DNA of 64,000 nucleotides from Eubacteriales bacterium (GCA_045543555.1 JAZQMQ010000023.1:5446-69445); one strand, 5' to 3'; shown: positions 4,001 through 38,196, counted from the stretch's first letter. Numbers and translations: made by a program. The notes: generated from the letters alone by a model not told the origin.

Positions 4001-4016
4001 GCGGTCAAACGAAAAT

Positions 4017-4060
4017 AAAGAAGCGATAAGCATTTCTGCTTACCGCTTCTTTGCATTTTT
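4017..4060. terminator. Bidirectional intrinsic terminator
   Basis: AAAGAAGCGATAAGCA-tttc-TGCTTACCGCTTCTTT followed by a T-run, between convergent ORFs. Confidence 0.6.
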
Positions 4061-4090
4061 TATAACACATGAGTTTTATTGGTCGGTCAA

Positions 4091-4479: not shown

Positions 4480-4706
4480 AGGTTCACCTCCCCTTAAAAT
4501 TCACAAGCGTAAACCTTTGCCGCGTTATTGTTACATATAATCAAAAATAAATCAAGGCGTTTCCTTATATTCGTAGTTTCCCCGATCTTGCCAAGGACTA
4601 TACGGTTACGAGTGCGTGTGAGCCTCCTCAAAAACCGCATTCAGCATTTAAATTGACCGTCGTCAGCATCATTTAAACATTAAATCACAAATGTCCCTAT
4701 TAACAC

Positions 4707-4735
4707 TTGATTCGTCCGTGTGAATATGATATAAT
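4707..4735 (+). promoter_or_regulatory. sigma-A promoter of the salvage operon
   Basis: TTGATT-17 nt-TATAAT with extended TG. Confidence 0.65.
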
Positions 4736-4770
4736 GAAGTATAATGGTTCTTACGTATGGGGGATTGGCA

Positions 4771-5352: not shown

Positions 5353-5364
5353 AAGGAGATAATT

Positions 5365-6033
5365 ATGACTATCAAAGAGATTCTCGAAAAGTGTGATCAT
5401 ACTCTGTTAGCGCAGGGCGCTGCTTGGACCGATATCAAGGCTATCTGTGATGACGGAATTCGATACAACACAGCTTCCGTATGCATTCCCGCATCACACG
5501 TAAAGCAGGCTAAGGAATATGTAGGCGACAAGCTCGCTATCTGTACAGTTATCGGCTTCCCAAACGGCTATTCCACTACCGCTGTAAAGATTTTTGAATG
5601 TAAGGACGCTTTGGCAAACGGAGCTGATGAGATCGATACCGTTATTAACATAGGTCATCTTAAGGCAGGAATGTACGATGAGATACTTTTCGAGCTAAGT
5701 GAGCTAAAAAAAGCCTGTGGTGACAAAATACTCAAGGTTATAATCGAGACCTGCCTTCTCACAGAAGCAGAAAAGATCAAGATGTGTGAGCTTGTCACCA
5801 AATCCGGAGCTGATTTCATCAAAACCTCCACGGGATTTTCCACCGGCGGAGCTACACTTGAGGACGTAGCACTCTTAGCCAAGCACATTGGCGAGGGAGT
5901 ACAGATCAAAGCCGCAGGCGGCATTTCTTCCCTTGCAGACGCCGAAGCATTTATCAATCTTGGCGCAACGCGTCTCGGAACCAGCAGAATAGTAAAGATT
6001 GCAAAAAACGAAGAAAACAATTCTGCTTACTAA
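5365..6033 (+). CDS. deoC: Deoxyribose-phosphate aldolase
   Basis: [37 protein letters not shown]. Confidence 0.95.
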
Positions 6034-6043
6034 GGAGGACACT

Positions 6044-6766
6044 ATGACTGATCAACACACCCCACATATCAAAGCAACCTCATCGGATTTTGCCAAAACC
6101 GTGCTTATGCCCGGTGATCCGCTTCGTTCCAAATTTGTTGCGGAAAATTTTCTTTGCGACCCCAAGCTGATCAATAACGTACGCGGTATCCAAGGCTACA
6201 CCGGTACGTATAACGGTGTGCCTGTTACAGTTATGGCAAGTGGAATGGGTATGCCGTCGATTGGAATTTATTCCTATGAGCTTTTCAACTTCTTTGGCGT
6301 TGAAAACATCATCCGTATCGGTTCTGCAGGCGGACTTGCAGACAGCGTTCAGCTCCGCGACATAATAATCGGTATGGGCGCATGCACCAACTCCGCATAT
6401 CAGGATCAGTATAATCTGAACGGTAATTTTGCTCCAATTGCCAGCTTCGAGCTCCTTTCCCACGCGGTAGATGAGGCAAAAGCAATAGGCGTACGTTATC
6501 AGGTAGGAAACCTTTTATCCTCCGACGTATTCTATCACGCTGACCCTAACTTTAATCAGGGTTGGTATAAGATGGGAGTCCTCGGAGTTGAAATGGAGGC
6601 TGCAGCGTTGTATATGAACGCAGCCGCGGCAGGTAAACGAGCGCTTGCGATCTGTACTGTATCCGATCACATTCTGCGCGGTGAAGCACTTGATGCGGAC
6701 GCACGTCAGAACACGTTTACAGACATGATGACCATTGCCTTAAACGTGGCAGTTAAAATGTCCTGA
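6044..6766 (+). CDS. deoD: Purine-nucleoside phosphorylase (DeoD type)
   Basis: TPHI, MPGDPLR, GMGMPS, IRIGSAG, VEMEAA, TVSDH. ATG 6044 follows AAGGAGG. Confidence 0.95.
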   Translation: MTDQHTPHIKATSSDFAKTVLMPGDPLRSKFVAENFLCDPKLINNVRGIQGYTGTYNGVPVTVMASGMGMPSIGIYSYELFNFFGVENIIRIGSAGGLADSVQLRDIIIGMGACTNSAYQDQYNLNGNFAPIASFELLSHAVDEAKAIGVRYQVGNLLSSDVFYHADPNFNQGWYKMGVLGVEMEAAALYMNAAAAGKRALAICTVSDHILRGEALDADARQNTFTDMMTIALNVAVKMS

Positions 6767-23096: not shown

Positions 23097-23894
23097 TCAA
23101 ATATTAAATAATTTTGCGGCGTTATTATAAAATATATCTTCGCGCTGTTCTTCCGTCAAGTCGATGCTGAGGAATCTTTCTATCTCGACCTCGGGATTCC
23201 ACATAGGGTAATCGGTACCGAAAAGCACACGGTCGGAACCGTACGCCAAAATAAGCTCCTTTGCTTTTTCGGGTGATATTGCAAATAGGGACGAGGAGCA
23301 ATCCACGTAAAAGTTTTTATAACCGCAAAGCTTACTTGTCGCTTCCTCCCAAATTGAATAGCCTCCGAAATGGGCGCCGATGAACACAAGATCCTTATAA
23401 ATATCAAGTATCGGCTTGATCCTGTTTGGATTTGAATAGTCGTAGCGGCTATCTCCTGTATGAACAAGCAGAGGTAATCTGCCCTCGCAAAGCTCGTATA
23501 TTTTGAGCATACGGTAGTCGTCAAGCTTAAATTTTTGTATATCCGGATGAAGCTTAACTCCCTTCAGCCCCAGTTCAATTATCTCGTTTACGTCCGCCTC
23601 AATATCCTCACTGTCGGGGTGAAGTGTGCCGAGTCCCGTAAAGGTGCCTTCACTTTCCGCAACCGATGCCGCAATGAATTTATTTATGCTTGACACCTGC
23701 TTGGGAGTCGTTGCGACCGACTGAACGATAAAATGATCTATCCCCGCATTTTTTCCGTGCTCCAGCAGGGTCGATATTTTCCCGTCAAAGCACATTGGAA
23801 TATCATAAAACTTTCCCGTGCTGTCGGAAGCCTTCTCCGCTATTTTATCGGGGTAAATGTGACAGTGAGCGTCGATAATTCTATATTTCTTCAT
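23097..23894 (-). CDS. Amidohydrolase family protein (Amidohydro_2-like)
   Basis: IDAHCH, GVKLHP, VHTGD, AHFGG, LFGTDYP. Confidence 0.85.
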   Translation of the reverse strand: MKKYRIIDAHCHIYPDKIAEKASDSTGKFYDIPMCFDGKISTLLEHGKNAGIDHFIVQSVATTPKQVSSINKFIAASVAESEGTFTGLGTLHPDSEDIEADVNEIIELGLKGVKLHPDIQKFKLDDYRMLKIYELCEGRLPLLVHTGDSRYDYSNPNRIKPILDIYKDLVFIGAHFGGYSIWEEATSKLCGYKNFYVDCSSSLFAISPEKAKELILAYGSDRVLFGTDYPMWNPEVEIERFLSIDLTEEQREDIFYNNAAKLFNI

Positions 23895-23957
23895 TTGGTC
23901 TGCTCTTTTCTTTAAAGACCGACACCGTATGCGGTGTCGGTCTTCTGTCTTTTGATA

Positions 23958-24989
23958 TTAGCCGTAGATGATCTGCTCTGCCATTTCGGTTGCGATAACA
24001 CCCTCGGGCTTACCGGTCTCCTTGGACTCGGTGAGGATCTTCTCGATGGAATTGTAGATGTTGTCGACCTTGGTAAGAACTGCGTCCTTATTGTAGGGGC
24101 CGTCAACCTCTGCTGCCGCGTTAATAACGCCGCCACCGTTGATTACCAAGTCGGGAGCGTAGTAGATGCCTCTTGCCTTGAGTGCAAGACCCGAAGCGTC
24201 ATCGAGGATCTGGTTGTTTGCTCCACCTGCAACTGCCTTACAGTTAAGGGTGGGGATTGTGTTGGGGTTGATGATAGCGCCCATAGCGTTGGGGGAGAAG
24301 ATGTCACACTTGACGGACATAATCTCGTTAGTCGAAACCACAGTCGCGCCGAATTCCTCAGCAGCCTTAGCCGCAATCTCCTTGTTGGAGCGGTTAGCAA
24401 CGATGAGCTTTGCGCCGCTGTTGTGAAGGTGACGGCAGAGGTCATAGCCGACCTTACCGAGACCCTGAACCGCGATGGTAAGTCCGTCAAGGTTATCGGA
24501 GCCGAAGGCTACCTTTGCGGTTGCCTTGATACCCTGCCATACGCCGCGTGCGGTGAAGGGGGAGGGGTCGCCGCTATTCTGGGGAAGTCCGCAGATGTGG
24601 TTTGTCTTGCGGAGCATAACGAGTGCGTCGTCACAGGTGGTATTTACGTCCTCAGCAGTTATGTAGTCGCCGCCGAGGTTGTTAACTGCCTCGCCGAATG
24701 CCTCGAACATTGCTTCGGTCTTCATGGAGGGGTCAGCGATGATTACGCCCTTACCGCCCCCGTGAGGAAGTCCTGCCATAGCATTCTTGTGGGACATACC
24801 TCTTGAAAGACGGAGTACGTCGAAGAGCGCATCGTCGTAGGACGCATAGGGGAAGAGACGGCAGCCGCCGATTGCAGGGCCGAGATTGGTGTTGTGAACA
24901 GCGATGATAGCCTTAAGGCCTGCCTTTTCGTTGTTTACGAAAAGCACCTTTTCATGGCGCCATGTAGTCATTTCAGTCATTGCATTCAT
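23958..24989 (-). CDS. ldh: Leucine (Glu/Leu/Phe/Val family) dehydrogenase
   Basis: GPAIGGCR, LSRGMSHK, GGGKGVI, ITAEDV, GDPSPFTA, VQGLGKVG, GGANNQ. ATG 24989 follows AAGGAG. Confidence 0.9.
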   Translation of the reverse strand: MNAMTEMTTWRHEKVLFVNNEKAGLKAIIAVHNTNLGPAIGGCRLFPYASYDDALFDVLRLSRGMSHKNAMAGLPHGGGKGVIIADPSMKTEAMFEAFGEAVNNLGGDYITAEDVNTTCDDALVMLRKTNHICGLPQNSGDPSPFTARGVWQGIKATAKVAFGSDNLDGLTIAVQGLGKVGYDLCRHLHNSGAKLIVANRSNKEIAAKAAEEFGATVVSTNEIMSVKCDIFSPNAMGAIINPNTIPTLNCKAVAGGANNQILDDASGLALKARGIYYAPDLVINGGGVINAAAEVDGPYNKDAVLTKVDNIYNSIEKILTESKETGKPEGVIATEMAEQIIYG

Positions 24990-25030
24990 GGTTTTATTCT
25001 CCTTTGATAAAAGCTGCAGGAACAGCAAGA

Positions 25031-25570
25031 TTACTTGTTATAGGTCATACCCATGTTGAGAGCCTTCATATTGAGCTCCTTCAGGGCTGCCTTCTTTGCG
25101 GGAACGAGCTTTTCAACTACCTCAGCAGTTCCATCAAAGGAAAGCTCGGGGTTGTTTTCAAGCAGGTGACCGACGATTATCATATTTGCAAGGGTGGTTA
25201 TTCCCTCGTCCTTTGCCATCTGAGTTGCGGGAATATAGAATACCTCTACGTCCTCACGCTCGACCTTAACGTCGATAAGCGAGGAGTCAACGTATATCTG
25301 ACCGCCCGAAACCACGGTGTTTACGTACTTCTGAAGCGAGGGGGTGTTCATTGCGATAAGAACGTCGGGGGTCGTGATTATGGGTGAACCAACGGGAGAT
25401 TCGGAAATGATAACGTTACAGTTAGCGGTTCCGCCTCTCATTTCGGGACCGTAGGAAGGAAGCCAGGAAACCTGATAGTCATCCATAAGTCCTTTGTATG
25501 CAAGGAATTTTCCGGAAAACAGTATTCCCTGTCCTCCGAAGCCTGCAATGAGGATCTGCGTAGTTTTCAT
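25031..25570 (-). CDS. 2-oxoacid:ferredoxin oxidoreductase gamma subunit
   Basis: AGFGGQG, PSYGPEMRGGTA. Confidence 0.92.
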   Translation of the reverse strand: MKTTQILIAGFGGQGILFSGKFLAYKGLMDDYQVSWLPSYGPEMRGGTANCNVIISESPVGSPIITTPDVLIAMNTPSLQKYVNTVVSGGQIYVDSSLIDVKVEREDVEVFYIPATQMAKDEGITTLANMIIVGHLLENNPELSFDGTAEVVEKLVPAKKAALKELNMKALNMGMTYNK

Positions 25571-25571
25571 A

Positions 25572-26327
25572 TTACTGTTCCTCCTTGCTTGCGCTTCTGT
25601 CCTTATATACGCCGATTGGATAATAAGGAAGCATATCGCTCTCGATCCACTTAAGTGCCGCCTCAGGAGTCATTCCCCAGTTGGTCGGACACGCGGAAAC
25701 GACCTCAACAAGTGAGAAGCCCTTTCCTGCGACCTGATTTTCAAAGGCCTTTTTGATTGCTTTCTTAGCATTCTTTACGTTCTTTACGTTATTAACGGCC
25801 ACACGTGCTATATACTCGGGACCTTCAAGCGTTGACAGCATCTCGCTAACCTTGATGGGCCAACCGCAGTGATTAACATCGCGTCCGTAAGGAGAGGTCT
25901 GAGTTACCTGACCGGGAAGGCTTGTAGGAGCCATCTGTCCACCGGTCATACCGTAAATTGCGTTATTTACGAAGATAACGGTAATGTTTTCGTTTCTTGC
26001 GGCAGAATGTACGGTTTCTGCCATACCGATGGAAGCAAGGTCACCGTCGCCCTGATAGGTGAATACCACGTTTTCGGGACGGCAACGCTTAATTCCCGTT
26101 GCAACTGCGGGAGCTCTTCCGTGAGGAGCTTCGATCATATCGCAAGCAAAATAATCGTAAGCCATTACTGCACATCCAACGGGTGCAACACCGATAGCCT
26201 TACCCTCTATTCCAAGCTCATCCATTACCTCAGCTACGAGGCGGTGAATAATTCCGTGAGGGCAACCGGGACAATAGTGGAAGGGAGCGTCTGTAAGAGA
26301 CTTGGGTTTTTCAAATACAATTGCCAT
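25572..26327 (-). CDS. 2-oxoacid:ferredoxin oxidoreductase beta (TPP-binding) subunit, VOR type
   Basis: YCPGC.HG, HGRAPA, QGDGD...[16 protein letters not shown]. Confidence 0.92.
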
Positions 26328-26328
26328 C

Positions 26329-27390
26329 TTAGTTTTCTCCTTTCTCAGCTCGTTGAATGGATTCAAGCACCTGATCGGGACTTGGTATCATACCACCTGT
26401 ACGGTTGCACAGGGTTACGGGCTTCTTGCACTGTGAATAGAGGCGAATATCCTCGATCATCTGACCCATATTAAGCTCTACCGAGATAAACGACTTTACC
26501 TTATCGGCAGCAGCTGCGATAGCCTTTGCCGGGAATGGCCAAAGTGTGATGGGGCGGATAAGACCGACCTTGATGCCTTGGCTGCGCGCAGTTACTACGG
26601 CATTCTTGGCAACTCTGGATGCAATACCGAATGCAACAACGCAGATTTCCGCATCCTCCATCATATATTCCTCCCACATTGGCTCGTTTTCTTCGATGAG
26701 AGCATACTTTTCGTAGCGGTCGAAGTTCTTCTTTTCGAGCTCGTCGGGCTTTAAGTACAGTGAGTTGACTATGTTATGGGGACGCTTACATTCCGTACCT
26801 GTGAGTGCCCAAGGCTTTTCGTAAACGGTGGGCTCCTCTTCCTCAAACACTATAGGCTCCATCATCTGACCGATGGTACCGTCTGCGAGGATCATGGAGG
26901 TCATGCAATACTTGTCTGCAAGGTCGAAGCCCTTGATCGTGAGGCTTGCCATTTCCTGAACCGACGCGGGAGCGAGAACGATCATACGGTAGTCACCGTG
27001 ACCGCCGCCCTTTACCGCCTGAAAATAGTCGGACTGAGAGGGCTGAATACCGCCGAGACCGGGGCCGCCTCTCTGTACGTTGACAACGAGTGCAGGAACG
27101 TCTGAGCCGGCTATGTAGCTAAGGCCCTCGGTCTTAAGGGAGATTCCGGGGCTGGAGGAGGAGGTCATTACTCTCATACCTGCAGCCGCCGCACCGTAGA
27201 CCATATTTATAGATGCAATTTCACTCTCCGCCTGAAGGAATACACCGCCGATCTTGGGCATTTTCTTTGCCATATAAGCGGCGATCTCGGTCTGGGGAGT
27301 TATCGGGTAACCGAAATAGTGACGGCAACCGGCACGTATAGCGGCTTCGGCTATCGCCTCGTTGCCCTTCATTAAAATTCTTTCTGCCAT
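26329..27390 (-). CDS. vorB: 2-ketoisovalerate:ferredoxin oxidoreductase alpha subunit (VorB-like)
   Basis: KGNEA, GYPITPQ, QAESE, TSSSSPG, RGGPGLG..QPSQSDY. Confidence 0.88.
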
Positions 27391-27400
27391 GGTTTTCTCC

Positions 27401-27607
27401 TTATTTTTCGACAGTAATTATGCAATCGGGACACATTGTCGCACAGAAAGCACAACCTATACATTTATTCTGATCCTTAATATACGCAGGTGAATAACCC
27501 TTTGCATTAAGCTTATCTGAAGCTATGTCGAGACAGCCCTTGGGGCAAGCGCCGACGCAAAGTCCGCAGCCCTTGCACATATCGGTATTAAAAGTTACCT
27601 TTGCCAT
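27401..27607 (-). CDS. 2[4Fe-4S] ferredoxin (delta subunit)
   Basis: CKGCGLCVGACP and CIGCAFCATMCP. Confidence 0.92.
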   Translation of the reverse strand: MAKVTFNTDMCKGCGLCVGACPKGCLDIASDKLNAKGYSPAYIKDQNKCIGCAFCATMCPDCIITVEK

Positions 27608-27617
27608 TGTTTTCTCC

Positions 27618-28280
27618 TTAAAAAAGTTTCTTCTGAAGTGTCAGCGGCATAACGGGCACGCCCGTCAGCTTTTCTGCTACTTCTTTCACCGCCGTGTGTG
27701 TCCACAGGGGAAGCCCCGTCCTTTCACACAGCTCGTTTATATAGGAATAAGAATCGGTTACGGTCTCCACGGTCGTGAGTTCCCCAAGATTTGAGTTGTT
27801 TACGATGCAGGTAAAATTCAGCCCGCACGCCGTCTCAATCTCTCTCATTATCTCGATAGCACCGTCAACCGATGCGGTAAGGGGTCGATAGCAGTTGGCT
27901 ACGAACACCATCTCGTAATCGTTCTCCGCCTTTATAGCCTCGACGAATCTGCCGAGGGCATATGCGCCGCGGTCGTCGCCGCCTATATCCATTATACCGT
28001 AGACCGACTTGTCTTGCACAAGTCTGTAGCTTGCGGCAGGCAGGGCTGGCAGGTCAACGTTCGTGTTTGCATACTGTGGGGAAATTAGGTCGATTCCGTG
28101 AGCATTAAGCTCCTCCTCGCTGTCCTTGGTACGAAAGTACGGATTGACAATATCGAGGTCGGCTATACAGACCTTTTTTCCTTCGTTTGCAAGCTTTATC
28201 GCGTAATTTACGGCGATATTCGTTTTACCGCTTCCGTAGTGCCCTGCAAAAAGGGTAAGTCGCTTATTATTCATGATCAA
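27618..28280 (-). CDS. P-loop NTPase (MinD/CobQ-like) associated with vor genes
   Basis: GHYGSGKT, DLDIVNPYFR, DIGGD; start may be ATG 28274. Confidence 0.8.
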   Translation of the reverse strand: MIMNNKRLTLFAGHYGSGKTNIAVNYAIKLANEGKKVCIADLDIVNPYFRTKDSEEELNAHGIDLISPQYANTNVDLPALPAASYRLVQDKSVYGIMDIGGDDRGAYALGRFVEAIKAENDYEMVFVANCYRPLTASVDGAIEIMREIETACGLNFTCIVNNSNLGELTTVETVTDSYSYINELCERTGLPLWTHTAVKEVAEKLTGVPVMPLTLQKKLF

Positions 28281-30553
28281 AGCTGTTTTCTTATTATCTT
28301 TCCGCTCGTGGTCTTGGGCAGACTTTCACGGAATTCAACTATTCTCGGGTACTTATAGGGAGCTGTACGGGATTTTACGTAATCCTGTATCTGCTTTTTC
28401 AGCTCGTCGGTGCCCTCCATTCCCTTGACGAGAACGATGCTTGCCTTGACGACCTGACCTCTTATCTCGTCGGGTGCGGCGGAAACTCCGCATTCGAGTA
28501 TGTAAGGAAGCTCCATTATGACGTTTTCAATTTCAAACGGTCCGATACGGTAGCCCGAAGACTTGATAACATCATCGGCACGTCCGACGTACCAAAGGAA
28601 GCCGTCCTCGTCCTTCCATGCGAGGTCGCCCGTGTGGTAGAAGCCGTCTCTCCAAGTCTCCTTGGTGACCTCCTCGTTGCCCTCGTAAGCGTAGGCAAGA
28701 CCGCAAGGAAGACCCTTTTCAATGTTGATACATATCTCGCCGTTTTCACCGCTCTCAACCTCGTTACCGTCGATGTCAAGCAGATGAACGTCGTAAAGGG
28801 GTACGGGTTTACCCATAGAGCCTATCTTGTGGCTTCCGCCTGCAAGATTACCAATGATGAGAGTGCTTTCGGACTGACCGAAGCCCTCCATTATCTTGAG
28901 TCCCGTGTGTTCCTCGAACTTGCGGAATACCTCGGGGTTAAGCGCTTCGCCCGCAGTTGATGCGTGCTCGATGCTCGAAAGATCGAAGCGGCTGATGTCC
29001 TGCTTGATGAGCATACGGTACATGGTGGGCGGTGCGCAGAAGGTCGTTATGCCGTATTTTGCAAAGAGGGGGAGTATCTTTTCGGCATCGAAGCGGTCGA
29101 AATCGTAAACGAAGTTTGCCGCCTCGCAGAGCCACTGACCGTAGAGCTTGCCCCACATCGCCTTTGCCCAACCGGTGTCGGAAATGGTGAGGTGAAGCCC
29201 GTCTGGATTGACCTGATGCCAATATTTTGCGGTAATGAAGTGACCGAGGGGATATTTGTAGCTGTGAGCGGCGATCTTGGGATAGCCCGATGTTCCCGAT
29301 GTGAAGAACATGAGCATGGGATCGCTTCCGCAGGGAGCATCCTCGGTGCGAACGAAATGGCTGCTGAAGAGGGGGAATTCCTCGTTGAAATCGTGCCAAC
29401 CGTCGCGGCTGCCGTTGACGAGGATCTTTTGTTCAAGACAGGGACAGCTCTTGGCGGCGCTTTCCACTGCATCAGACACTTCGCCGTCGGCGGTACAGAG
29501 TATCGCCTTAACGTTTGCGGCATTGAATCTGTAAGAAAGGTCCTTTTCAAGAAGCTGATTGGGAGCGGGAATTGCAATAGCTCCGAGCTTATGAAGACCG
29601 AGCACCGCAAACCAGAACTGATAGTGGCGCTTGAGAATGAGCATTACGCGGTCGCCACGCTTGATTCCGAGAGATTTGAAGTAGTTTGCGGCTCTGCTTG
29701 ACTCCTTCTTCATATCGGAGAAGGTGAGGCGTCTTTCCTCACCGTTTTCACTTACGTGAAGCATTGCCAGCTTGTCGGGCTTACGTGTTCCAAGCTCGTC
29801 AACGATGTCGAAGGCGAAGTTGAACTTCTCCTCGTTTTTAAATTCGATCCTTGTAAGGACGCCGTCTTCCTCGGTGGGAATGATGAAGTCGTTGTAGATA
29901 CGTACCTGCTTGTCCTCGGCACGACGCTTGGTAGCAACAGAAATTGCTGCCTGTTGCTCGCCCTCTCTTGCCGCTTGATTGCGAAGGACGATAGCATAGA
30001 AGGAGCAATCCTCTCCGCCCACCGCCATCATACCGTGAGGCGTACCCGAATCGTAGTAGATCGTGTCGCCTGGATTAAGTATCTCGGTGTGTTCACCGAT
30101 CTGGATCTTCATCTGACCCTTTATGACGATGTCGCACTCCTGACCCTCGTGAGTTACAAGCTCGATCTCGGCATCGGGACGGTAGTTCATATTCATATAA
30201 AGTGGGAGCGCAATACGGTTACGGAAGCCTGAAGCAAGGTTATAACCGATCATATTGTGTGCTTCCTCTATTCTCTGCCCTTCTCCCTTACGGGTCAGCG
30301 CATAGGAGCGAAGCTTCGGGGATTTACCCTCGAGAATATCTCCCATATCGACGCCGAAGCTGAGAGTACAGTGATAGAGGAAGGCAATACTGAGATTACG
30401 GTTACCCGCCTCGCACTGCTCGTATTCATAAACGCTCATTCCGGTTCGTGAAGCCATATCCTCGACCGAAAGGCCCGTAATAATACGAAGTTCTTTTATT
30501 CGATTTGCTATTTCTTTTATCTTGTGTTCCATTGAACTGAAGTTCTGTTCCAC
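28277..30553 (-). CDS. XRE-HTH + cupin + acyl-CoA synthetase (AMP-forming) fusion, paralog B
   Basis: IANRIKELR HTH, THEGQE...PHGM cupin, FTSGTSGYPK, EGFGQSE, YHTGD, GRADDVIKSSGYRIGPFEIE, LPKTTSGK. Confidence 0.88.
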   Translation of the reverse strand: MEQNFSSMEHKIKEIANRIKELRIITGLSVEDMASRTGMSVYEYEQCEAGNRNLSIAFLYHCTLSFGVDMGDILEGKSPKLRSYALTRKGEGQRIEEAHNMIGYNLASGFRNRIALPLYMNMNYRPDAEIELVTHEGQECDIVIKGQMKIQIGEHTEILNPGDTIYYDSGTPHGMMAVGGEDCSFYAIVLRNQAAREGEQQAAISVATKRRAEDKQVRIYNDFIIPTEEDGVLTRIEFKNEEKFNFAFDIVDELGTRKPDKLAMLHVSENGEERRLTFSDMKKESSRAANYFKSLGIKRGDRVMLILKRHYQFWFAVLGLHKLGAIAIPAPNQLLEKDLSYRFNAANVKAILCTADGEVSDAVESAAKSCPCLEQKILVNGSRDGWHDFNEEFPLFSSHFVRTEDAPCGSDPMLMFFTSGTSGYPKIAAHSYKYPLGHFITAKYWHQVNPDGLHLTISDTGWAKAMWGKLYGQWLCEAANFVYDFDRFDAEKILPLFAKYGITTFCAPPTMYRMLIKQDISRFDLSSIEHASTAGEALNPEVFRKFEEHTGLKIMEGFGQSESTLIIGNLAGGSHKIGSMGKPVPLYDVHLLDIDGNEVESGENGEICINIEKGLPCGLAYAYEGNEEVTKETWRDGFYHTGDLAWKDEDGFLWYVGRADDVIKSSGYRIGPFEIENVIMELPYILECGVSAAPDEIRGQVVKASIVLVKGMEGTDELKKQIQDYVKSRTAPYKYPRIVEFRESLPKTTSGKIIRKQL

Positions 30554-30591
30554 TTGGCACCTCTTCGTGCTAAAAATAATTGATAAATTAT

Positions 30592-30621
30592 ATTATACTA
30601 TGTTTTGAGCACCCTTGTCAA
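30592..30621 (-). promoter_or_regulatory. Internal sigma-A promoter upstream of paralog B and the vor genes
   Basis: Minus strand TTGACA-18 nt-TATAAT. Confidence 0.65.
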
Positions 30622-30656
30622 TATTTTTCGAGCTTATATTACTGACAAACTTTACA

Positions 30657-32924
30657 TCAAAGCTTGTTTCTCATGATTTTTCCGCTGATAGTCTTGGGAA
30701 GCTCTGTACGGAATTCGACGATCCTTGGGTACTTATAGGGTGCGGTATGAAGCTTTACGTAATTCTGAATGTCCTTCTTAAGCTCATCCGTTCCCTCTAC
30801 GCCCTTGACCAGAACGATACAAGCTTTGACGACCTGACCTCTTACCTCGTCGGGAGCGGCACAAACGCCGCATTCGAGAACGTAAGGAAGCTCCATGATC
30901 GTAGACTCGATCTCAAACGGTCCGATACGGTAGCCCGAGCTCTTGATAACGTCATCGGCACGTCCGACGTACCAATAGTAGCCGTCCTCATCGCGCCATG
31001 CAAGGTCGCCCGTATGATACATTCCGTCGTACCATACGCTCTTTGTTGCTTCTTCATTCAGGTAGTAGCCGAGGAATACTCCGCAGGAGATCTTTTTATC
31101 GGTGCGGATAACAATCTCGCCGTTTACACCGTCGGGAACGGGATTTCCGTCGGTATCAACAAGGTCGATTCCGTAGCTCGGAACGGGCTTACCCATAGCG
31201 CCGGGCTTAAGCTGTGTACCATAAAGGTTTGCTATACCGAGGGTCATTTCCGTCTGACCAAATCCCTCCGCAATATGAAGCCCCGTTGCCTTTTCAAACT
31301 GATAATAGACCTCGGGATTAAGCGCCTCGCCTGCCGTTGTGGCATGACGAATGGAGGAAAGGTCGTATTTACTCAGATCCTGCTTGATAAGCATTCTGTA
31401 CATCGTGGGCGGTGCGCAGAAGGTGGTGATTCCGTACTTACTAAACATCGGCAGGATCTTTTCGGAATCGAAACGATCAAAATCATATGTGAATACAGCA
31501 CCTTCGCAGAGCCACTGACCGTAGAGCTTGCCCCAAAGTGCCTTACCCCAACCGGTTTCGGAAATTGTGAAGTGCAGTCCGTCCTGCTCACAAAGATGCC
31601 AATATTTTGCGGTAACAAAGTGACCGAGTGCATATTTATACGAATGCATTGCCATTTTGGGATAACCCGTTGTACCCGAGGTGAAAAGCATAAGCATAGG
31701 ATCGTTTCCACAGGGAGCGTCGTCGGTACGGACAAAACGGCGACTGAAAAGAGAATATTCGTTATCAAAGTCGTGCCAACCGTCGCGGCTTCCGCCAACA
31801 AGCACCTTGGTAAGAGACTTTTCGCACTGTTTTTCTGCAAGCTCGACCTGATGTGAGGTATCGCCGTCCGCGGTACAGATAATGGTACTTACACCTGCAG
31901 CATTAAAGCGGTAAACGAAGTCCTTTTCAACGAGCTGATTTGTTGCGGGAATTGCGATTGCGCCAAGCTTATGAAGACCGAGAATTGCAAACCAGAACTG
32001 GTAGTGACGCTTCAGCACAAGCATAACGCGGTCGCCACACTTGATTCCGAGGGATTTGAAATAGTTGGCGCTCTGAGAAGAAGCGTCCTTTATATCCTTA
32101 AAGGTGAATCTGCGCTCGGTCATATCGTTTGCTACGTGTATCATAGCAAGCTTTTCGGGCTGACGGCGAGCGATCTCATCTACGGTATCGAAGGCAAAAT
32201 TGTATTTGTCCTCGTTTTCGTAGGAGACATCGGTAAGAGCTCCGCGCTCGTCCTCTGTGGTCTTGATAAATTTTTCGCAAAGGAGCGGTACCTTCGCTGC
32301 GGAATGCTCACGGCCGCCGATGTAAAGAGGCTGATCCGTTACGTCACTCGCCATGACCATCGCAAGAAAGACGCAGTCCGCACCGTCAATTGCGATCATT
32401 CCGTGAGGAGTTGAGGATTTGTAAAATACACTGTCTCCCTCATGAAGCACTTCCTCGCGATCGCCGATACGGACACGCATTGATCCCTTTACTACGAGGT
32501 CAAATTCCTGTCCTGCGTGAGTTACGGTGTGAATGGGCTTCTTTTGAAGCTCCTCGGAATACTGATAGGTTACCCAGTAGGGCGTAGCAAGCTTCTTGCG
32601 GAAGAGTGGTGCCATATCCTGAATGGTAATACCGTCCTCGCTTGCGGTGGTAAGACCCTCACCGCGACGGGTTACTGTGTAACCCGAAAGCTTTGCGCTG
32701 TGACCCTCGAGAATATCTGTGATCTCAAGCCCGTAGACCTTCGCGCACTTATGTATAAAGGTAAATGGCAGGTCAACCGTTCCGGTTTCATAGGAAAGAT
32801 ACGTTTCCTCGCTGACCTCTGTCATTTCTGCCATTTCTTTGGGAGTATATCCCATGATCTGACGCATTTCGCGTATACGCTGTGCAATATTCTGCAGCTG
32901 GTTCATACTTGATTGCGTTGTCAT
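30657..32924 (-). CDS. XRE-HTH + cupin + acyl-CoA synthetase fusion, paralog A
   Basis: IAQRIREMR, THAGQE...PHGM, FTSGTTGYPK, EGFGQTE, YHTGD, LPKTISGK. Confidence 0.88.
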   Translation of the reverse strand: MTTQSSMNQLQNIAQRIREMRQIMGYTPKEMAEMTEVSEETYLSYETGTVDLPFTFIHKCAKVYGLEITDILEGHSAKLSGYTVTRRGEGLTTASEDGITIQDMAPLFRKKLATPYWVTYQYSEELQKKPIHTVTHAGQEFDLVVKGSMRVRIGDREEVLHEGDSVFYKSSTPHGMIAIDGADCVFLAMVMASDVTDQPLYIGGREHSAAKVPLLCEKFIKTTEDERGALTDVSYENEDKYNFAFDTVDEIARRQPEKLAMIHVANDMTERRFTFKDIKDASSQSANYFKSLGIKCGDRVMLVLKRHYQFWFAILGLHKLGAIAIPATNQLVEKDFVYRFNAAGVSTIICTADGDTSHQVELAEKQCEKSLTKVLVGGSRDGWHDFDNEYSLFSRRFVRTDDAPCGNDPMLMLFTSGTTGYPKMAMHSYKYALGHFVTAKYWHLCEQDGLHFTISETGWGKALWGKLYGQWLCEGAVFTYDFDRFDSEKILPMFSKYGITTFCAPPTMYRMLIKQDLSKYDLSSIRHATTAGEALNPEVYYQFEKATGLHIAEGFGQTEMTLGIANLYGTQLKPGAMGKPVPSYGIDLVDTDGNPVPDGVNGEIVIRTDKKISCGVFLGYYLNEEATKSVWYDGMYHTGDLAWRDEDGYYWYVGRADDVIKSSGYRIGPFEIESTIMELPYVLECGVCAAPDEVRGQVVKACIVLVKGVEGTDELKKDIQNYVKLHTAPYKYPRIVEFRTELPKTISGKIMRNKL

Positions 32925-32939
32925 AACTCAATCCCTTTC

Positions 32940-33195
32940 AAAACAAAAATCGTCTCAAGAAAATCCTTCTTGAGACGAGTAATTATACCCGCGGTACCAC
33001 TCAAATTACGGCATAGCCGTCACTTTGGGCTCCAACAAGCCCTCGCCCTTAACGCGGGAAACGGAATGCCCTGGCTTAAGCTCGGACATTCGACTCGGAA
33101 GTGATATGCACATTGGCTCCAAGCTATCGGCTCACACCGTCCGCCGACTCTCTGAAAGCTTAAGTAACCGTGCCGTCTTCGTCACAGTCTTTGAA
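32940..33195 (-). ncRNA. T-box riboswitch with Ile (AUC) specifier
   Basis: Minus strand: AGAGA and GGUGUGA stem I motifs; specifier loop GUGC-AU-AUC-A-CUUC (AUC at 33105-33103); T-box AAUUUGAGUGGUACCGCG (33007-32990); terminator UCGUCUCAAGAA/UUCUUGAGACGA plus U-run. Confidence 0.88.
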
Positions 33196-33208
33196 TATTG
33201 TTGAAAAT

Positions 33209-33237
33209 ATTTTACCACGATAAAGGGACTTTGTCAA
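33209..33237 (-). promoter_or_regulatory. sigma-A promoter of the T-box leader
   Basis: Minus strand TTGACA-17 nt-TAAAAT with extended TG. Confidence 0.7.
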
Positions 33238-33457: not shown

Positions 33458-34867
33458 ATGAAACAGATCAAAATCAGCGACGCTACGATGAAGCAGACCT
33501 TCGAGGGCTTTGCCCTATCCTTCAAGGAAAAGATCGAGCTATCGAAGCTACTAAATAAGCTTGGCATTGACGTGATAGAACTCGATTTCATAAGAAATGC
33601 GCGTATCGATTCGCTTCAGATAAAATCCATCGTTTCCGCGGTAAGAGACAGCGTCATCGCAGTTCCGGTTGAGCAGAACGAAGAAAGCATCAAGATAACT
33701 TGGAACGCTCTTCAGAGCGCCGAAAAGCCACGCCTTCAGGTCTGCGCGCCCGCATCTCAGGTGCAGATAGAATACATTTCCCACAAGAAGCCCGATGCAA
33801 TGCTCGAAAGTGTAAAAAATACCGTTATCGCTTGTAAAAAGCTCTGCTCCGACGTTGAGCTCGTCATCGAGGACGCAACAAGAAGCGAGCAGGCTTTCCT
33901 TACAAAAATGATCGAAACCGGAATCGATGCAGGTGCAACGGTAATTACCCTTTGCGATACTGCGGGAACTATGCTCCCCTCTGAATTTGCGGAATTTATA
34001 AAGGCACAGTATGAAAATCTCCCCGTTCTTAAAAACGTGAGCCTCGGAATATCCTGCGCGAATACAATTTCCATGGCGGACGCTTGCGCCATTGCCGCTG
34101 TAGCTGAAGGCGCGACACAAATTAGTTGCGCTTCTTATCCCGATAACTGTGCGGACCTCTCAAATATTGCGCACGTTCTTTCTGCAAAGGCAGATACACT
34201 TGATGCACATTGCAATATTGCGGTAACTCAGATAAGCAGAATAATCGATCAGATAAATTGGCTGTGTAACCCGTCAAAGAGCACGGACAGCGCACTTGCG
34301 ATCGGTGACCATGATGATGCGGGAGTATTTCTCACCTCTCACGATGATGAAAACGCCGTTTTTGCGGCAGCTGAAAAGCTTGGATACGACCTTTCGGAGG
34401 CTGAAACTGCAAAGGTATATGCCGCCTTCCGTCAGATCGCAGAGAGGAAGGAAAAGGTGTCCTTCAAGGAGCTTGACGCAATCGTGGCATCAAGCGCAAT
34501 GCAGGTTCCTCCCACCTATAAGCTCGATACATACGTTATAACCTCAGGAAATACCATTTCCGCAACCGCACACATCAAGCTCGAAAAGAACGGTCAGAGC
34601 GTCGAGGGTGTCTACATCGGCGACGGCTCAATTGATGCCGCTTTCCAGGCGATAGAAAAGATCACGGGCTGTCACTACGAGCTCGACGATTTCCAGCTTC
34701 AAGCGGTAACCGAGGGACGCGAGGCGATGGGTCAGACCGTCGTTAAGCTCCGTGCTAACGGCAAGGTCTATTCGGGACGCGGAATCTCCACCGACATCGT
34801 CGGCGCGGGTATTCAGGCGTACCTTTCCGCACTCAATAAGATAATCTACGAGGAGGAAGCTGAATGA
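33458..34867 (+). CDS. LeuA/CimA-like DRE-TIM protein with a degenerate active site and a retained C-terminal regulatory domain
   Basis: Retains EDATRS, LCDTAG..LPSE, GDGSIDA, AVTEG.EA.G and G.STDIV.A. The canonical DxTLRDGEQ is replaced by DATMKQ and HCHND by SCANT. Confidence 0.8.
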   Translation: MKQIKISDATMKQTFEGFALSFKEKIELSKLLNKLGIDVIELDFIRNARIDSLQIKSIVSAVRDSVIAVPVEQNEESIKITWNALQSAEKPRLQVCAPASQVQIEYISHKKPDAMLESVKNTVIACKKLCSDVELVIEDATRSEQAFLTKMIETGIDAGATVITLCDTAGTMLPSEFAEFIKAQYENLPVLKNVSLGISCANTISMADACAIAAVAEGATQISCASYPDNCADLSNIAHVLSAKADTLDAHCNIAVTQISRIIDQINWLCNPSKSTDSALAIGDHDDAGVFLTSHDDENAVFAAAEKLGYDLSEAETAKVYAAFRQIAERKEKVSFKELDAIVASSAMQVPPTYKLDTYVITSGNTISATAHIKLEKNGQSVEGVYIGDGSIDAAFQAIEKITGCHYELDDFQLQAVTEGREAMGQTVVKLRANGKVYSGRGISTDIVGAGIQAYLSALNKIIYEEEAE

Positions 34868-37374
34868 AACTTTCCTTCTCAAACAGGGGTTGGCGCGAGC
34901 TTTCCTTCGAAAATATGCTCGATGCCGCGTCGGACATGGGATTTTCGGGAGTAGAGATATATAATCTTCAAAACGTCTCCGCCATGACCGAAAAGGGCGC
35001 ACCATTTCATAAATATAACGTAGCGTCAACGGCACGTCAGCTTCGGGACAGAAAGCTTTCAATCCCTTGCTTTGATACCTCCTGCGACGTATCCGATCCA
35101 ACGGTTATAAACACGGTGGTCAGCCTTATGGAAATAGCTCACGATGCGGGTGTTCCTTACGTTGTCGTATGTGCTCTGCACGACGAAGAAAACGCAGTTT
35201 ACTCCACCCTCACGGCTCTTTTACAGAAGGCACAGAAGCTCTCGGTTTCGATCCTTGTGAAAACAAGCGGTATCTATTCCGACACCTCCCGTCTGCGCAC
35301 CCTTCTCGAAAGCTTCGCATCCGATAACCTCGCAGCTCTGTGGGACGTTCACCACACCTACCGTGACCACGGCGAAAGCGGTGACGATACTATAAAAAAT
35401 CTCGGTGCGTACATCTGCCACGTTCACGTCCGTGATTCCGACGACAGCGGAGCGTATCAGCTGATCGGCGAGGGCACGATGCCCATATCCGACGTTATGC
35501 GCGCGCTCTCCTCGGTAAATTACGACGCATTCATTTCTCTTGAATGGAAGCCCGAGTGGATCGAAGGGCTCGACGATCCCGAGATAATCTTCCCCCATTT
35601 TGTAAACTATATGTCCCGTTTCCATTCGACTCGGGATATGAAAAAGACACTCTATTTTAACCACGACGGAAGCGGTCAGTACATCTGGAAAAAGGACGAG
35701 CTTATCGACCTTACATTCTCACAGGTGCTCGACCGTGTCGCCGACGAGTTCCCGGACCAGTACTGCTTCAAATACACGACTCTCGACTACACACGCACCT
35801 ATGCACAGTTTCGCGAGGACGTCGACAAATTTGCCCGTGCTCTCGTTTCTCTCGGTGTAAAGGCCGGCTCAAAGGTCGCAGTTTGGGCAACGAACCTGCC
35901 CGCTTGGTACATCACCTTTTGGGCAACCACCAAGCTCGGCGCGGTGCTCGTTACCGTCAATACCGCTTATAAGATACACGAGGCGGAATACCTGCTCCGT
36001 CAGTCCGACACGCATACACTCGTTATGATCGAGAGCTGTCTCGACTCAAATTATAAGGATATTATAAATACCCTCTGCCCCGAAATTAAGGACGCAACTC
36101 CGGGTGAGCCGTTACACTGTAAGAAGCTTCCCTTCCTTCGTAACGTAATAACGGTTGGATTTAAGCAGGCGGGCTGTCTCACCTTTGATGAGGCGATAGC
36201 ACGTCATAAGCTTGTGCGCCGCGAGACCGTGGCGAGAATGGCGGCGGCAGTACGCCCTTCCGACGTCTGCAATATGCAGTACACTTCGGGCACGACAGGC
36301 TTCCCCAAGGGAGTTATGCTCACTCACTATAACGTCGTAAATAACGGCAAATGTATCGGCGACAGAATGGGACTTTCGACTGCAGACCGAATGATGATAC
36401 ACGTTCCGATGTTCCATTGCTTCGGTATGACCCTTTCGATGACGTCGTCAATGACTCACGGTGCAACAATGTGCCCGATGCCCTATTTCTCTGCAAAATC
36501 GTCACTTGCCTGCATAAATCAGGAGAAGATAACCTGCTTCAACGGTGTTCCGACAATGTTTATCGCAATGTTCAACCACCCCGATTACCGCCGTACCGAT
36601 TTCTCGCATATGAGAACGGGAATAATGGCAGGCGCAGGTTGTCCGCCCGAGCTGATGAAGCGCGCGGCGCAGCCCGATGAGATGAATATGAGGGGTATCG
36701 TCAGCGTATACGGTCAGACCGAGTGCGCCCCCGGTAATACCATGAGCTCGTGGACCGATCCTATTGAGGTTCGTACCGAGACCGTCGGTTACGCATTCCC
36801 CCACGTTCGCTGTAAGATAGTCGATCCCGAAACGGGCGAGGAGCTTGGTGCGGGACAAAACGGCGAATTTTGTGCCAAGGGCTATAATACGATGAAGGGC
36901 TACTATAAGATGCCCAATTCCACCAAGGATACCGTCGATGAGGACGGCTGGCTCCATTCGGGCGACCTCGCATCGCGCGACGAGCAGGGTAACTATCGCA
37001 TCACAGGTCGTCTTAAGGATATGATAATCCGCGGAGGAGAAAACATCTACCCCAAGGAGATCGAGGAATTCATCTACACCCATCCGATGACCAAGGACGT
37101 TCAGGTTATAGGCGTACCCGACAAGAAGTACGGCGAAGAAATAATGGCTTGTATCATCCTTAAGGAGAAGGATTGCATAACTGTGGATGAAATGTCCGCC
37201 TACATCAAGGCAAATATGGCCCGTCATAAGGTGCCGAAGTACATCGAATTCGTCGATAGCTTCCCAATGAACGCAGCCGGAAAGATCCTCAAGTATAAAA
37301 TGCGCGAGGATGCCGCAAAACGCCTCGGACTTATCGGTGACGGTTCCGACACCGCAGGCCCCGGCAATAACTGA
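34864..37374 (+). CDS. Xylose-isomerase-like TIM barrel fused to an AMP-binding acyl-CoA ligase
   Basis: N-terminal WDVHH, HVHVRD, SLEW. C-terminal QYTSGTTGFPKG, YGQTE, WLHSGD, GRLKDMIIRGGENIYP.EIE, GKILK. Confidence 0.85.
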   Translation: MKLSFSNRGWRELSFENMLDAASDMGFSGVEIYNLQNVSAMTEKGAPFHKYNVASTARQLRDRKLSIPCFDTSCDVSDPTVINTVVSLMEIAHDAGVPYVVVCALHDEENAVYSTLTALLQKAQKLSVSILVKTSGIYSDTSRLRTLLESFASDNLAALWDVHHTYRDHGESGDDTIKNLGAYICHVHVRDSDDSGAYQLIGEGTMPISDVMRALSSVNYDAFISLEWKPEWIEGLDDPEIIFPHFVNYMSRFHSTRDMKKTLYFNHDGSGQYIWKKDELIDLTFSQVLDRVADEFPDQYCFKYTTLDYTRTYAQFREDVDKFARALVSLGVKAGSKVAVWATNLPAWYITFWATTKLGAVLVTVNTAYKIHEAEYLLRQSDTHTLVMIESCLDSNYKDIINTLCPEIKDATPGEPLHCKKLPFLRNVITVGFKQAGCLTFDEAIARHKLVRRETVARMAAAVRPSDVCNMQYTSGTTGFPKGVMLTHYNVVNNGKCIGDRMGLSTADRMMIHVPMFHCFGMTLSMTSSMTHGATMCPMPYFSAKSSLACINQEKITCFNGVPTMFIAMFNHPDYRRTDFSHMRTGIMAGAGCPPELMKRAAQPDEMNMRGIVSVYGQTECAPGNTMSSWTDPIEVRTETVGYAFPHVRCKIVDPETGEELGAGQNGEFCAKGYNTMKGYYKMPNSTKDTVDEDGWLHSGDLASRDEQGNYRITGRLKDMIIRGGENIYPKEIEEFIYTHPMTKDVQVIGVPDKKYGEEIMACIILKEKDCITVDEMSAYIKANMARHKVPKYIEFVDSFPMNAAGKILKYKMREDAAKRLGLIGDGSDTAGPGNN

Positions 37375-37395: not shown

Positions 37396-38196
37396 ATGGC
37401 ATTCCCCATAGCACTTCTGTGGCTCTTTATTGCCGCAATGGTAATAAGCTCAATAGGCTTTAAAAATTATGTTTGGTTCATTTCTCTCGGCTACGGTTTT
37501 TCGGTAGCGGGCGAGGGCATTCTGATGCTTATTCTGTACGGAAAGCAGCTCAGCATCGGAACGATACTCTGCTGTGCCCTATTTATAATTTACGGTTTCA
37601 GGCTAAGCGGCTATCTTGCCATAAGAGAATTTGGCAGCAGCTCCTACAAGAAGAACATGAAGGGTGAGATCAAGGACGGAAAATTTGTTCCCTTCGGAGT
37701 CAAGATAGCAATCTGGGTAACCTGTGCGCTCCTTTACGTCACTCAGGTTTCGGGCGTGACGTACCGTCTTGAAAACTCGAGTGCGGATGACGTATTCGTT
37801 TATATCGGTATCGCAGTTATGGCGTTGGGTCTCGTTCTCGAAACGGTTGCCGACATTCAGAAAAATAACGCCAAAAAGGTAAATCCCAAGCGCTTTGTGG
37901 ATACGGGACTTTACCGCTTCGTGCGTTGCCCCAACTACCTCGGTGAAATGATCTTCTGGACCGGCGTTCTCGTGTCCGGGATTGGCGCGGTCAAGGGATG
38001 GCAGTGGGTGATAGTCGCAATTGGATACGTCGGTATCATATTTGTAATGTTCAGCGGCGCCCGCAGACTTGAGCTTCGTCAGAATAAAAACTACGGCAGC
38101 GACCCCGAATACCAAAAATACGTAAAGACCGTTCCGATAATGGTTCCCTTCATTCCTCTTTACAGCGTAGAAAAATATAAATGGCTGGTAGCATAA
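37396..38196 (+). CDS. DUF1295 / steroid 5-alpha-reductase-like membrane protein
   Basis: Multiple TM segments; LETVADIQK, GLYRFVRCPNYLGE, YQKY. Confidence 0.8.
   Translation: MAFPIALLWLFIAAMVISSIGFKNYVWFISLGYGFSVAGEGILMLILYGKQLSIGTILCCALFIIYGFRLSGYLAIREFGSSSYKKNMKGEIKDGKFVPFGVKIAIWVTCALLYVTQVSGVTYRLENSSADDVFVYIGIAVMALGLVLETVADIQKNNAKKVNPKRFVDTGLYRFVRCPNYLGEMIFWTGVLVSGIGAVKGWQWVIVAIGYVGIIFVMFSGARRLELRQNKNYGSDPEYQKYVKTVPIMVPFIPLYSVEKYKWLVA

Follow-up and report, generated by a model that had tools for sequence, protein, structure and literature searches.

Many gut and rumen anaerobes have been known since the 1960s to need branched short-chain acids and to build isoleucine, valine and leucine from such acids; labelling work of the 1960s–80s described, in rumen bacteria and methanogens, the reductive carboxylation of 2-methylbutyrate, isobutyrate and isovalerate to these amino acids. 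Does a gene cluster dedicated to this route exist, and how could it be told from one that degrades the same amino acids? A 64,000-nucleotide stretch of DNA from an Eubacteriales bacterium (GCA_045543555.1, JAZQMQ010000023.1:5446-69445; hereafter the window) raises this question with a single minus-strand block of eight genes behind a leader (23958–33237), encoding two acyl-CoA ligases, a P-loop NTPase, the four subunits of a VOR-type oxidoreductase and a leucine dehydrogenase (LeuDH)-type enzyme. An initial annotation, made from the sequence alone, had described a T-box-led cluster for the synthesis, not the breakdown, of branched-chain amino acids. Our analysis leads to the reading, to which we assign a probability of about 0.8, that the block is a salvage operon producing isoleucine and valine from 2-methylbutyrate and isobutyrate.

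The leader contains a T-box at 32968–33194, which matched Rfam RF00230 over the full model (1–219) with an Infernal score of 100.5 bits (gathering score, 93; E = 5.7e-21) and was the sole Rfam match in the 64-kb window. In the Infernal alignment its specifier columns read AUC, an isoleucine codon, followed by A. Two further T-boxes were found in the genome, giving three in total; the same columns read GUA in the leader of the valS-like gene and UGG in the Trp leader of a TrpB-like gene, which provides an internal control on the specifier register. The antiterminator bulge of the window leader was identified as UGGUACCGCG, with UGGU. An intrinsic terminator (32940–32978; fold and motif scan) uses the antiterminator's 3′ arm as its own 5′ arm; it is a hairpin of 12–13 base pairs with a U-run, in which the stem is followed by AUUUUUGUUUU. 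The folding energy of this hairpin was -22.9 kcal/mol, compared with -13.0 ± 2.9 kcal/mol for shuffled sequences (z = -3.4). The covariance-model scan thus confirms the T-box with an AUC specifier and terminator that the initial annotation had noticed. A promoter-like site, TTGACA-17-TAAAAT with a TG extension (33209–33237, 11/12, by consensus match alone), ends about 15 nucleotides before the 5′ end of the T-box. Uncharged tRNA-Ile would switch this leader on; no tRNA-Ile gene was present among the 35 tRNAs of the assembly, which is 89.8% complete.

The branched-chain genes known to carry T-boxes include ileS, valS, leuS and the ilv-leu operon of Bacillus subtilis. Like the T-boxes on such supply genes of Firmicutes, the window leader combines a specifier loop, a UGGN bulge and a terminator for attenuation. 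Unlike the known T-box regulons, it controls acid ligases and a carboxylating oxidoreductase, and not ilv/leu enzymes, an aminoacyl-tRNA synthetase or a transporter. The third T-box of the genome (G000:C9:85240-85449, plus strand; UGG), whose 56 bits fall short of the gathering score, lies ahead of the gene for a stand-alone TrpB-like enzyme of the pyridoxal phosphate-dependent type (L003:1635-3152; 676 bits for NF009057, with a cut-off of 366), possibly representing a second tRNA-gated salvage step, from indole to tryptophan.

The specifiers of related loci were read in the same way. A one-genome-per-species scan yielded 272 stretches encoding relatives of ligase 1, the first gene of the block, and 80 loci were kept. 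All of them belong to uncultured Oscillospiraceae, Faecousia, Christensenellaceae and similar gut or rumen bacteria, with rumen and hindgut metagenome-assembled genomes (MAGs) of goat, sheep, deer and yak, and also human ones, as sources. The order ligases, NTPase, delta, alpha, beta and gamma subunit was found in 44 of the 80. Upstream of genes in these loci, the T-box core motif occurred 126 times: 63 times before ligase 1, 28 times before ligase 2, 26 times before a LeuA-like gene, twice before a solo gene for a TIM-barrel–ligase fusion (TIM-ligase) and 7 times elsewhere. We aligned each leader class to the window leader and then read the specifier column. The leaders of ligase 1 had ATC in 62 of 62 readable cases, one more being masked; those of ligase 2 genes with their own T-box had GTA (22) or GTC (6), together 28 of 28; those of the LeuA-like gene had CTG (17), CTC (7) or CTT (2), together 26 of 26; and both TIM-ligase leaders had CTG. 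TGGT was present in all 118 readable leaders.

The reading frame of these specifiers deserves attention. Three T-boxes of locus L036 scored 99.2, 98.6 and 91.6 bits in Infernal, with GUA followed by G and AUC followed by A in the specifier columns. For the leucine class, Infernal placed UCU followed by G in these columns with a one-nucleotide insertion, a register that is off by one. Before the leucine codon, 24 leaders have T and 4 have A, such that the shifted frame mixes UCU (Ser) and ACU (Thr); since only CUN is synonymous over the 28 leucine leaders, the CUN frame was taken. For the valine leaders, GUN is the sole consistent frame. A shifted UCN (Ser) frame of the isoleucine leaders was rejected: it is always followed by C and needs several isoacceptors, the Infernal columns give AUC, and the UGGU bulge fits a discriminator A, bacterial tRNA-Ser having the discriminator G73. 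Thus, sensors for isoleucine, valine and leucine are distributed one to each paralogous unit, which fits supply and not breakdown.

To what extent does the organism possess the canonical pathway? We searched the assembly (1.68 Mb in 36 contigs) with family profiles. Within this 89.8%-complete genome, KARI_C (ilvC), ILVD_EDD (ilvD) and Aminotran_4 (ilvE) gave no match, and TPP_enzyme_N (ilvB) gave only a 22.6-bit match, on the VOR alpha subunit. As positive controls, KARI_C, ILVD_EDD and Aminotran_4 gave matches in 14, 14 and 13 of 14 reference genomes. The check for missing ilv genes proposed in the initial annotation thus came out in its favour, to the extent of the assembly, for ilvC, ilvD and genes of the ilvB type; a gene of the ilvE type was likewise not found. 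The POR_N genes of the genome are those of a PFOR and of the operon VOR only. Three genes on separate contigs of this genome (G000) were considered as a hidden leucine pathway: an Iso_dh gene, the only one, best matched by Icd but below cut-offs (C30:41640-42821), an aconitase-family ‘hydratase’ (C20:87167-89347; NF008503, 1192 bits, above the cut-off) and an active NifV/IPMS-like synthase (C5:19665-21110). None of them reaches the LeuB, LeuC or LeuA cut-off, LeuD not having been searched, and the candidate was rejected. The three may be a 2-oxoacid elongation set or part of a glutamate route of the Re-citrate synthase type.

In a family sample of 121 genomes, the fused ligase (counted on full-length, uninterrupted matches, with three copies cut by a contig end included) was present in 72, or 79 in a looser tally. 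Of these 72 genomes, 15 have ilvC, compared with 24 of the remaining 49; since the relatives are not independent of one another, the contrast should be read as a trend rather than as a test. G091, the one other species of the genus, has ilvC and IlvE and is without the fused ligase.

The last gene of the block (23958–25028) informs us about the final step of the pathway. Its 356-residue product, whose true start may be Met20, matched LeuDHs over the full length (356 bits to PDB 6acf and 331 bits to 1leh), with phenylalanine dehydrogenase (PheDH) at 175 bits and glutamate dehydrogenase (GluDH) below 80 bits. It has the Pfam domains ELFV_dehydrog_N and ELFV_dehydrog and keeps the GGGK lysine and the ITAEDV stretch in the alignment, LeuDHs having a catalytic Lys and a hydrophobic pocket for the side chain. 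These features, common to the LeuDHs represented by 6acf, 1leh and 8hpe, suggest that the enzyme probably works like LeuDH, as a cofactor variant. It differs from LeuDH in being without Asp203 and in its location in a biosynthesis-type operon, at the place of IlvE. Where NAD-specific LeuDH reads IVTD-INKE, with Asp203 as the NAD-specifying residue, the window enzyme reads VANRSNKE: Asp is replaced by Asn, and an inserted Arg and then Ser follow. Among the matches listed, all 20 other cluster-linked copies read ANRSN, GNRSN, SNRNN or (A/S)THSNR at this site. The triple exchange D203A/I204R/D210R is reported to turn a LeuDH with strict NAD specificity into an enzyme that prefers NADP (PMC5817062). 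Taken with the loss of Asp203, this predicts the use of NADPH, which would suit reductive amination.

The slot after the gamma subunit gene is occupied by IlvE in most relatives, and LeuDH replaces it in the window operon, a swap that is new here. Among the 84 loci with at least 1.1 kb after the gamma gene, the next gene encoded IlvE in 41 and LeuDH in 19, while neither occurred within 0.9 kb in 24; this count pools 160 loci with duplicates left in, at least L066 and L104 being the same contig. The exchange is seen most closely in L007 (92% ligase identity; 92–93% for flanking genes), in which a 341-residue Aminotran_4 gene starts 25 nucleotides after gamma, at the position of the dehydrogenase. 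Within the 121-genome sample, LeuDH was present in 4 genomes, and in 2 of the other 3 it lies on the ligase contig. Aminotran_4 was found in 105 genomes, and the 16 without it include 3 of the 4 LeuDH carriers; the Aminotran_4 match of the fourth carrier is only 280 residues long and not of the ~360-residue IlvE type. Since IlvE and LeuDH share only the interconversion of branched 2-oxoacids and amino acids, the exchange pins down the last step of the pathway. In one related genome, G094, two tandem LeuDH-type genes (L095/L096; G094:C85:18615-20595), 59% and 53% identical to that of the window and carrying THSNR, lie on the ligase contig; Aminotran_4 had no match in G094.

The two ligases, ligase 1 (30657–32924) and ligase 2 (28277–30553), consist of 755 and 758 residues and are 60.5% identical to each other. 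Each has an XRE-type helix-turn-helix (HTH) domain (HTH_3) and a Cupin_2 domain, a fusion to be added to the initial inventory, followed by an AMP-forming synthetase (AMP-binding and AMP-binding_C, Pfam scores of 217 and 68 bits). The catalytic part of ligase 1 (residues 238–752) gave 612 bits to PDB 3etc, the MacsMa enzyme of Methanosarcina acetivorans. It keeps the marks of the enlarged MacsMa pocket, a Gly at the site of the gate Trp of acetyl-CoA synthetase (Acs Trp416) and an alternate Trp (EGFGQTE and KYW aligned to 3etc), to which the accessible part of PMC10455477 ascribes roles in the acyl pocket. MacsMa, according to the same part of that report, prefers 2-methylbutyrate and forms adenylates from C3 to C8 acids. 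The window ligases differ from MacsMa in ~235 extra N-terminal residues (HTH_3 and Cupin_2), in their occurrence as an Ile/Val pair and in being T-box-gated. The best NCBIfam model for both was MbcS (NF047394), with 426.6 and 422.0 bits, below the cut-off of 850; they are thus MbcS relatives and not MbcS equivalogs. MbcS is likewise a branched-acid ligase, activating 2-methylbutyrate and isobutyrate in Staphylococcus aureus as far as the available text of PMC10026030 states, but it feeds lipid synthesis and is without the HTH-cupin module that the window ligases carry.

A comparison of 61 Ile-gated with 26 Val-gated ligases identified 10 positions at which each group has its own fixed residue. 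Nine of them lie in the HTH-cupin module (58, 59, 93, 96, 99, 111, 116, 141 and 214), and only position 460, Gly in one group and Ala in the other within a GW[G/A]K motif, belongs to the catalytic domain. Ligase 2 of the window, which has no T-box of its own, agrees with the Val group at 9 of these 10 positions. These group residues, placed by sequence position alone since the structure model of the HTH-cupin module had low confidence (pLDDT 57.9), suggest that the module may bind a ligand, amino acid or acid, that differs between the isoleucine and valine systems. From the specifiers, the pocket and the group residues, 2-methylbutyrate is the predicted substrate of ligase 1 and isobutyrate that of ligase 2. 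A third, remoter ligase paralogue (41–46% identity over the full query length, with 1–3 in-frame stops) was seen in genomes G070, G072, G092, G045, G044, G001, G040, G034, G081 and G038; the stops suggest that the HTH-cupin part is a separate upstream gene there.

The oxidoreductase genes follow the NTPase gene. They encode a delta-type subunit of 68 residues with two [4Fe-4S] clusters (27401–27607), the alpha subunit (26329–27390; POR_N and PFOR_II), the beta subunit (25572–26327; thiamine pyrophosphate-binding, its start taken as Met14 of the open reading frame that opens at 26366) and the gamma subunit (25031–25570; POR family). Alpha matched NF005507 (VorB) with 546.5 bits against a cut-off of 399, whereas beta, gamma and delta had Pfam matches and were all below the NCBIfam cut-offs. 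The Pfam and NCBIfam results agree with the initial gene inventory of two acyl-CoA synthetases, a P-loop ATPase, VOR alpha, beta and gamma and a leucine dehydrogenase on one strand. The ‘ferredoxin’ of that inventory is indeed an Fe-S protein, but its best matches are delta subunits of 2-oxoacid:ferredoxin oxidoreductases (OFORs; OorD and OGOR delta), which makes it a delta-type subunit and not a free ferredoxin. Seven of its Cys residues are invariant and one is conserved at >=90% in 25 sequences. The enzyme thus has the four subunits of a VOR encoded together and would act on branched-chain 2-oxoacids and acyl-CoAs in the carboxylating direction. Four-subunit VORs of archaea have been described as anabolic in Methanothermobacter. 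Like the window genes, the archaeal ones encode alpha, beta, gamma and delta separately; in contrast to them, VOR of the window type is always preceded by a dedicated P-loop NTPase and ligases.

This NTPase (27618–28280; 220 residues; SIMIBI class, CbiA/ParA-like) is followed by the delta and further VOR genes in 77 of 80 further loci, the other 3 ending at a contig edge. It has a classical Walker A motif, GHYGSGKT, and many invariant polar residues, and no Cys column exceeded 66% in 47 sequences. An Fe-S ATPase of the NifH or Mrp type was considered and rejected, because neither a conserved Cys nor a deviant Walker A lysine is present. Its structure model (pLDDT 86) shows a generic SIMIBI fold only, with ATPase-type HypB as the best match (TM 0.53–0.59), and the protein may be an assembly factor or serve energy coupling. 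Two of the further loci with the NTPase-delta-VOR block, at ~60% identity, are rumen MAGs of Spirochaetota (Spirochaetales/Sphaerochaetaceae) and thus outside Firmicutes (L145 and L147, the latter with a ligase); the copies could reflect transfer or mis-binning.

How far does the T-box govern the genes behind it? The spacer between ligase 1 and ligase 2 comprises 103 nucleotides, has no T-box and contains a promoter with a perfect consensus match (TTGACA-18-TATAAT, 12/12; 30592–30621), which is conserved in this position in the closest relatives (L004-L010 and L012). Both ligases are present in 45 loci. In 23 of them the spacer is long and contains a Val T-box core, in 12 it measures 82–140 nucleotides and bears a promoter but no T-box, and in 9 it comprises only 7–28 nucleotides; L014 alone has a 533-nucleotide spacer without the core motif. 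Given the internal promoter, the T-box strictly gates only ligase 1 in the window. Ligase 2, the NTPase, VOR and the dehydrogenase are probably partly independent of it, with read-through adding to their own transcript. The picture of a single T-box-led cluster is therefore right in that the leader stands ahead of all the genes, and needs amendment in that the downstream genes are probably controlled by more than the T-box. The operon is closed by a hairpin immediately behind its final stop codon (23915–23944, minus strand), with a 13-base-pair stem (8 GC pairs) and then TTT.

A divergent pair of plus-strand genes beside the operon completes the set of three amino acids. The first (33458–34867) encodes a LeuA-like protein, assigned by Pfam and by alignment to PDB 3eeg and 3ewb, in which DTTLRDGEQ is changed to SDATMK--Q and HCHND to SCANT. 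With the RDGEQ motif and the HxH ligands lost, this is not a functional LeuA. The regulatory LeuA_dimer domain is kept (108 bits), and the dead LeuA may be a leucine sensor for the protein encoded next, a fusion of a TIM barrel (AP_endonuc_2) with a FadD-type acyl-CoA ligase (34864–37374; Pfam and NCBIfam), which overlaps the LeuA-like stop by 4 nucleotides and is a predicted isovalerate-CoA ligase. No T-box was found before the LeuA-like gene in the window down to E 10. At 37 of the 80 loci, one or both of the genes for the LeuA-like protein and the TIM-ligase neighbour the cluster, and three different arrangements occur. The route to isoleucine, valine and leucine originally ascribed to the cluster as a whole is accordingly divided: the operon covers isoleucine and valine, and the leucine unit is this divergent pair at 33458–37374, outside the block.

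Taken together, the features of the locus are consistent with the following mechanism. When isoleucine is short, uncharged tRNA-Ile would steady the antiterminator, and transcription would proceed into ligase 1 and onward, while the T-box-free promoter before ligase 2 would probably provide a basal level of ligase 2, NTPase, VOR and dehydrogenase. Ligase 1 for isoleucine and ligase 2 for valine would convert the acid to its acyl-CoA, using ATP and releasing AMP; the four-subunit VOR would join the acyl-CoA to CO2 with reduced ferredoxin to give the 2-oxoacid; and the LeuDH-type enzyme would aminate the 2-oxoacid with NH3, probably with NADPH. The divergent dead LeuA and TIM-ligase would form the leucine (isovalerate) arm feeding the same VOR and dehydrogenase. 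The substrates, the direction of VOR and the dehydrogenase, the use of NADPH and the roles of the cupin and NTPase are what we infer from sequence. A more elaborate version combines two-tier sensing (T-boxes with the HTH-cupin module and the dead LeuA as end-product sensors), an NTPase that spends ATP on VOR carboxylation or assembly and an NADPH- and ammonia-driven, glutamate-independent LeuDH step; it is speculative, and we hold it to be rather doubtful.

The anabolic direction proposed from the outset appears well supported by the isoleucine, valine and leucine T-boxes on paralogous units, by the failure to find ilvBCDE in the assembly and by the interchange of IlvE with the dehydrogenase. 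The opposite direction would have the dehydrogenase deaminate leucine, isoleucine and valine, and VOR oxidise the 2-oxoacids in a fermentation to branched acids. LeuDH and VOR are indeed catabolic and reversible in textbooks, NCBIfam names alpha as a dehydrogenase subunit, and the internal promoter could drive VOR and the dehydrogenase without starvation. It is nevertheless hard to see why such a pathway would be gated by starvation T-boxes for all three amino acids, or how it would profit from AMP-forming ligases, which run toward acyl-CoA and conserve no ATP, when the operon has neither an ADP-forming synthetase nor ptb/buk; moreover, the dehydrogenase is without the NAD-specifying Asp, and with no canonical biosynthesis found, degrading scarce amino acids under starvation would be counter-productive. 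A catabolic operon thus seems very unlikely to us. Just as improbable is that the module mainly handles other substrates, for example making 2-oxobutyrate from propionate, or aromatic oxoacids, with the isoleucine specifier as an indirect link. The conversion of 2-oxobutyrate to isoleucine needs ilvBCD, which were not found in the assembly, the three-codon pattern corresponds to the three branched acids, and the dehydrogenase is of the LeuDH type and not of the PheDH or GluDH type; these points outweigh, in our view, the breadth of OFORs and MacsMa-type ligases (MacsMa adenylating C3 to C8 acids in the accessible part of PMC10455477) and the scores of VOR beta and gamma below the NCBIfam cut-offs.

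A role in lipid synthesis is also improbable, if a little less so. The ligases, with VOR working from oxoacids, would supply branched acyl-CoA as primers for iso and anteiso fatty acids, and the T-box would mark a shift to exogenous acids when isoleucine is short. The bkd operon of Bacillus contains a LeuDH gene, which counts in favour of this idea, as do the analogy with MbcS and Bkd in Staphylococcus and the NCBIfam result, in which both ligases score best with MbcS, an enzyme reported to support the synthesis of branched-chain fatty acids (PMC10026030, PMC11167679). A search of the genome (89.8% complete), however, gave no match for the FabH C-terminal domain, and co-induced VOR and dehydrogenase would destroy the scarce amino acid. 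In addition, the slot shared by IlvE and LeuDH and the dead LeuA with its leucine-type regulatory domain point to amino acids as products, to which the leucine, valine and isoleucine switches correspond one to one.

Several observations nevertheless weigh against the salvage of isoleucine and valine as we propose it. Both ligases are far under the MbcS cut-off (427 and 422 against 850). The reactions of VOR and LeuDH are reversible, and the characterised LeuDHs are catabolic and NAD-dependent. With the 12/12 internal promoter, production of VOR and the dehydrogenase may not require isoleucine starvation, and the T-box speaks directly for ligase 1 only. The shifted UCN frame of the isoleucine leaders encodes Ser throughout, and the grounds for its rejection are indirect. 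The genome is incomplete, and it also contains the Iso_dh, aconitase-family and NifV/IPMS-like genes described above. Fifteen of the 72 carriers of the fused ligase also have ilvC, so that the cluster is not confined to auxotrophs. Finally, branched-chain amino acids may also be imported: an ABC transporter operon resembling LivJ/H/M/G is present (G000:C7, ~2100–6200; L177, L178), its best matches being Liv, all below the NCBIfam cut-offs; BrnQ was not found in the assembly.

Two neighbouring genes were considered as members of the operon and rejected. An Amidohydro_2 (PF04909) gene (23097–23894, minus strand) sits just past the operon terminator. Its homologues, with 40–65% identity, lie beside the cluster in L132, L134-L136, L140, L141, L144, L146, L166, L169, L102, L103, L106, L110, L118, L119 and L138; in Acutalibacteraceae they stand between TIM-ligase and the Ile T-box, and elsewhere they follow VOR in convergent orientation. 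The gene may be a further member of the cluster. A gene for a membrane protein resembling DUF1295/steroid reductases (37396–38196, plus strand) follows the TIM-ligase, and its place next to the cluster is not shared by relatives.

The chemistry proposed here is old. The accessible parts of two accounts of branched-acid reductive carboxylation (PMC2812497, PMC10658910) name no dedicated ligase, VOR or aminating genes and no regulator. The window operon shares with those accounts the proposed chemistry and the gut and rumen setting, and differs from them in proposing a defined operon with tRNA-sensing control. A full-text literature search, to which most subscription journals were out of reach, returned no description of T-box control of ligase/VOR genes, and a regulon survey of 2013 (PMC3766115) contains none of the five related terms looked for. 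Our analysis adds that LeuDH, with a distinctive cofactor signature, stands in for IlvE, that a consensus promoter lies between the ligases, that the specificity residues are concentrated in the cupin module and that the NTPase is not an Fe-S protein. With the LeuDH variant, glutamate would no longer be needed as the amino donor, and a natural, probably NADPH-using LeuDH would be of interest for biocatalysis. If the reading is true, one ligase is assigned to each acid and the direction of the pathway is set by tRNA-specific switches, and the cross-feeding of these bacteria on products of protein fermentation would become predictable from their genomes.

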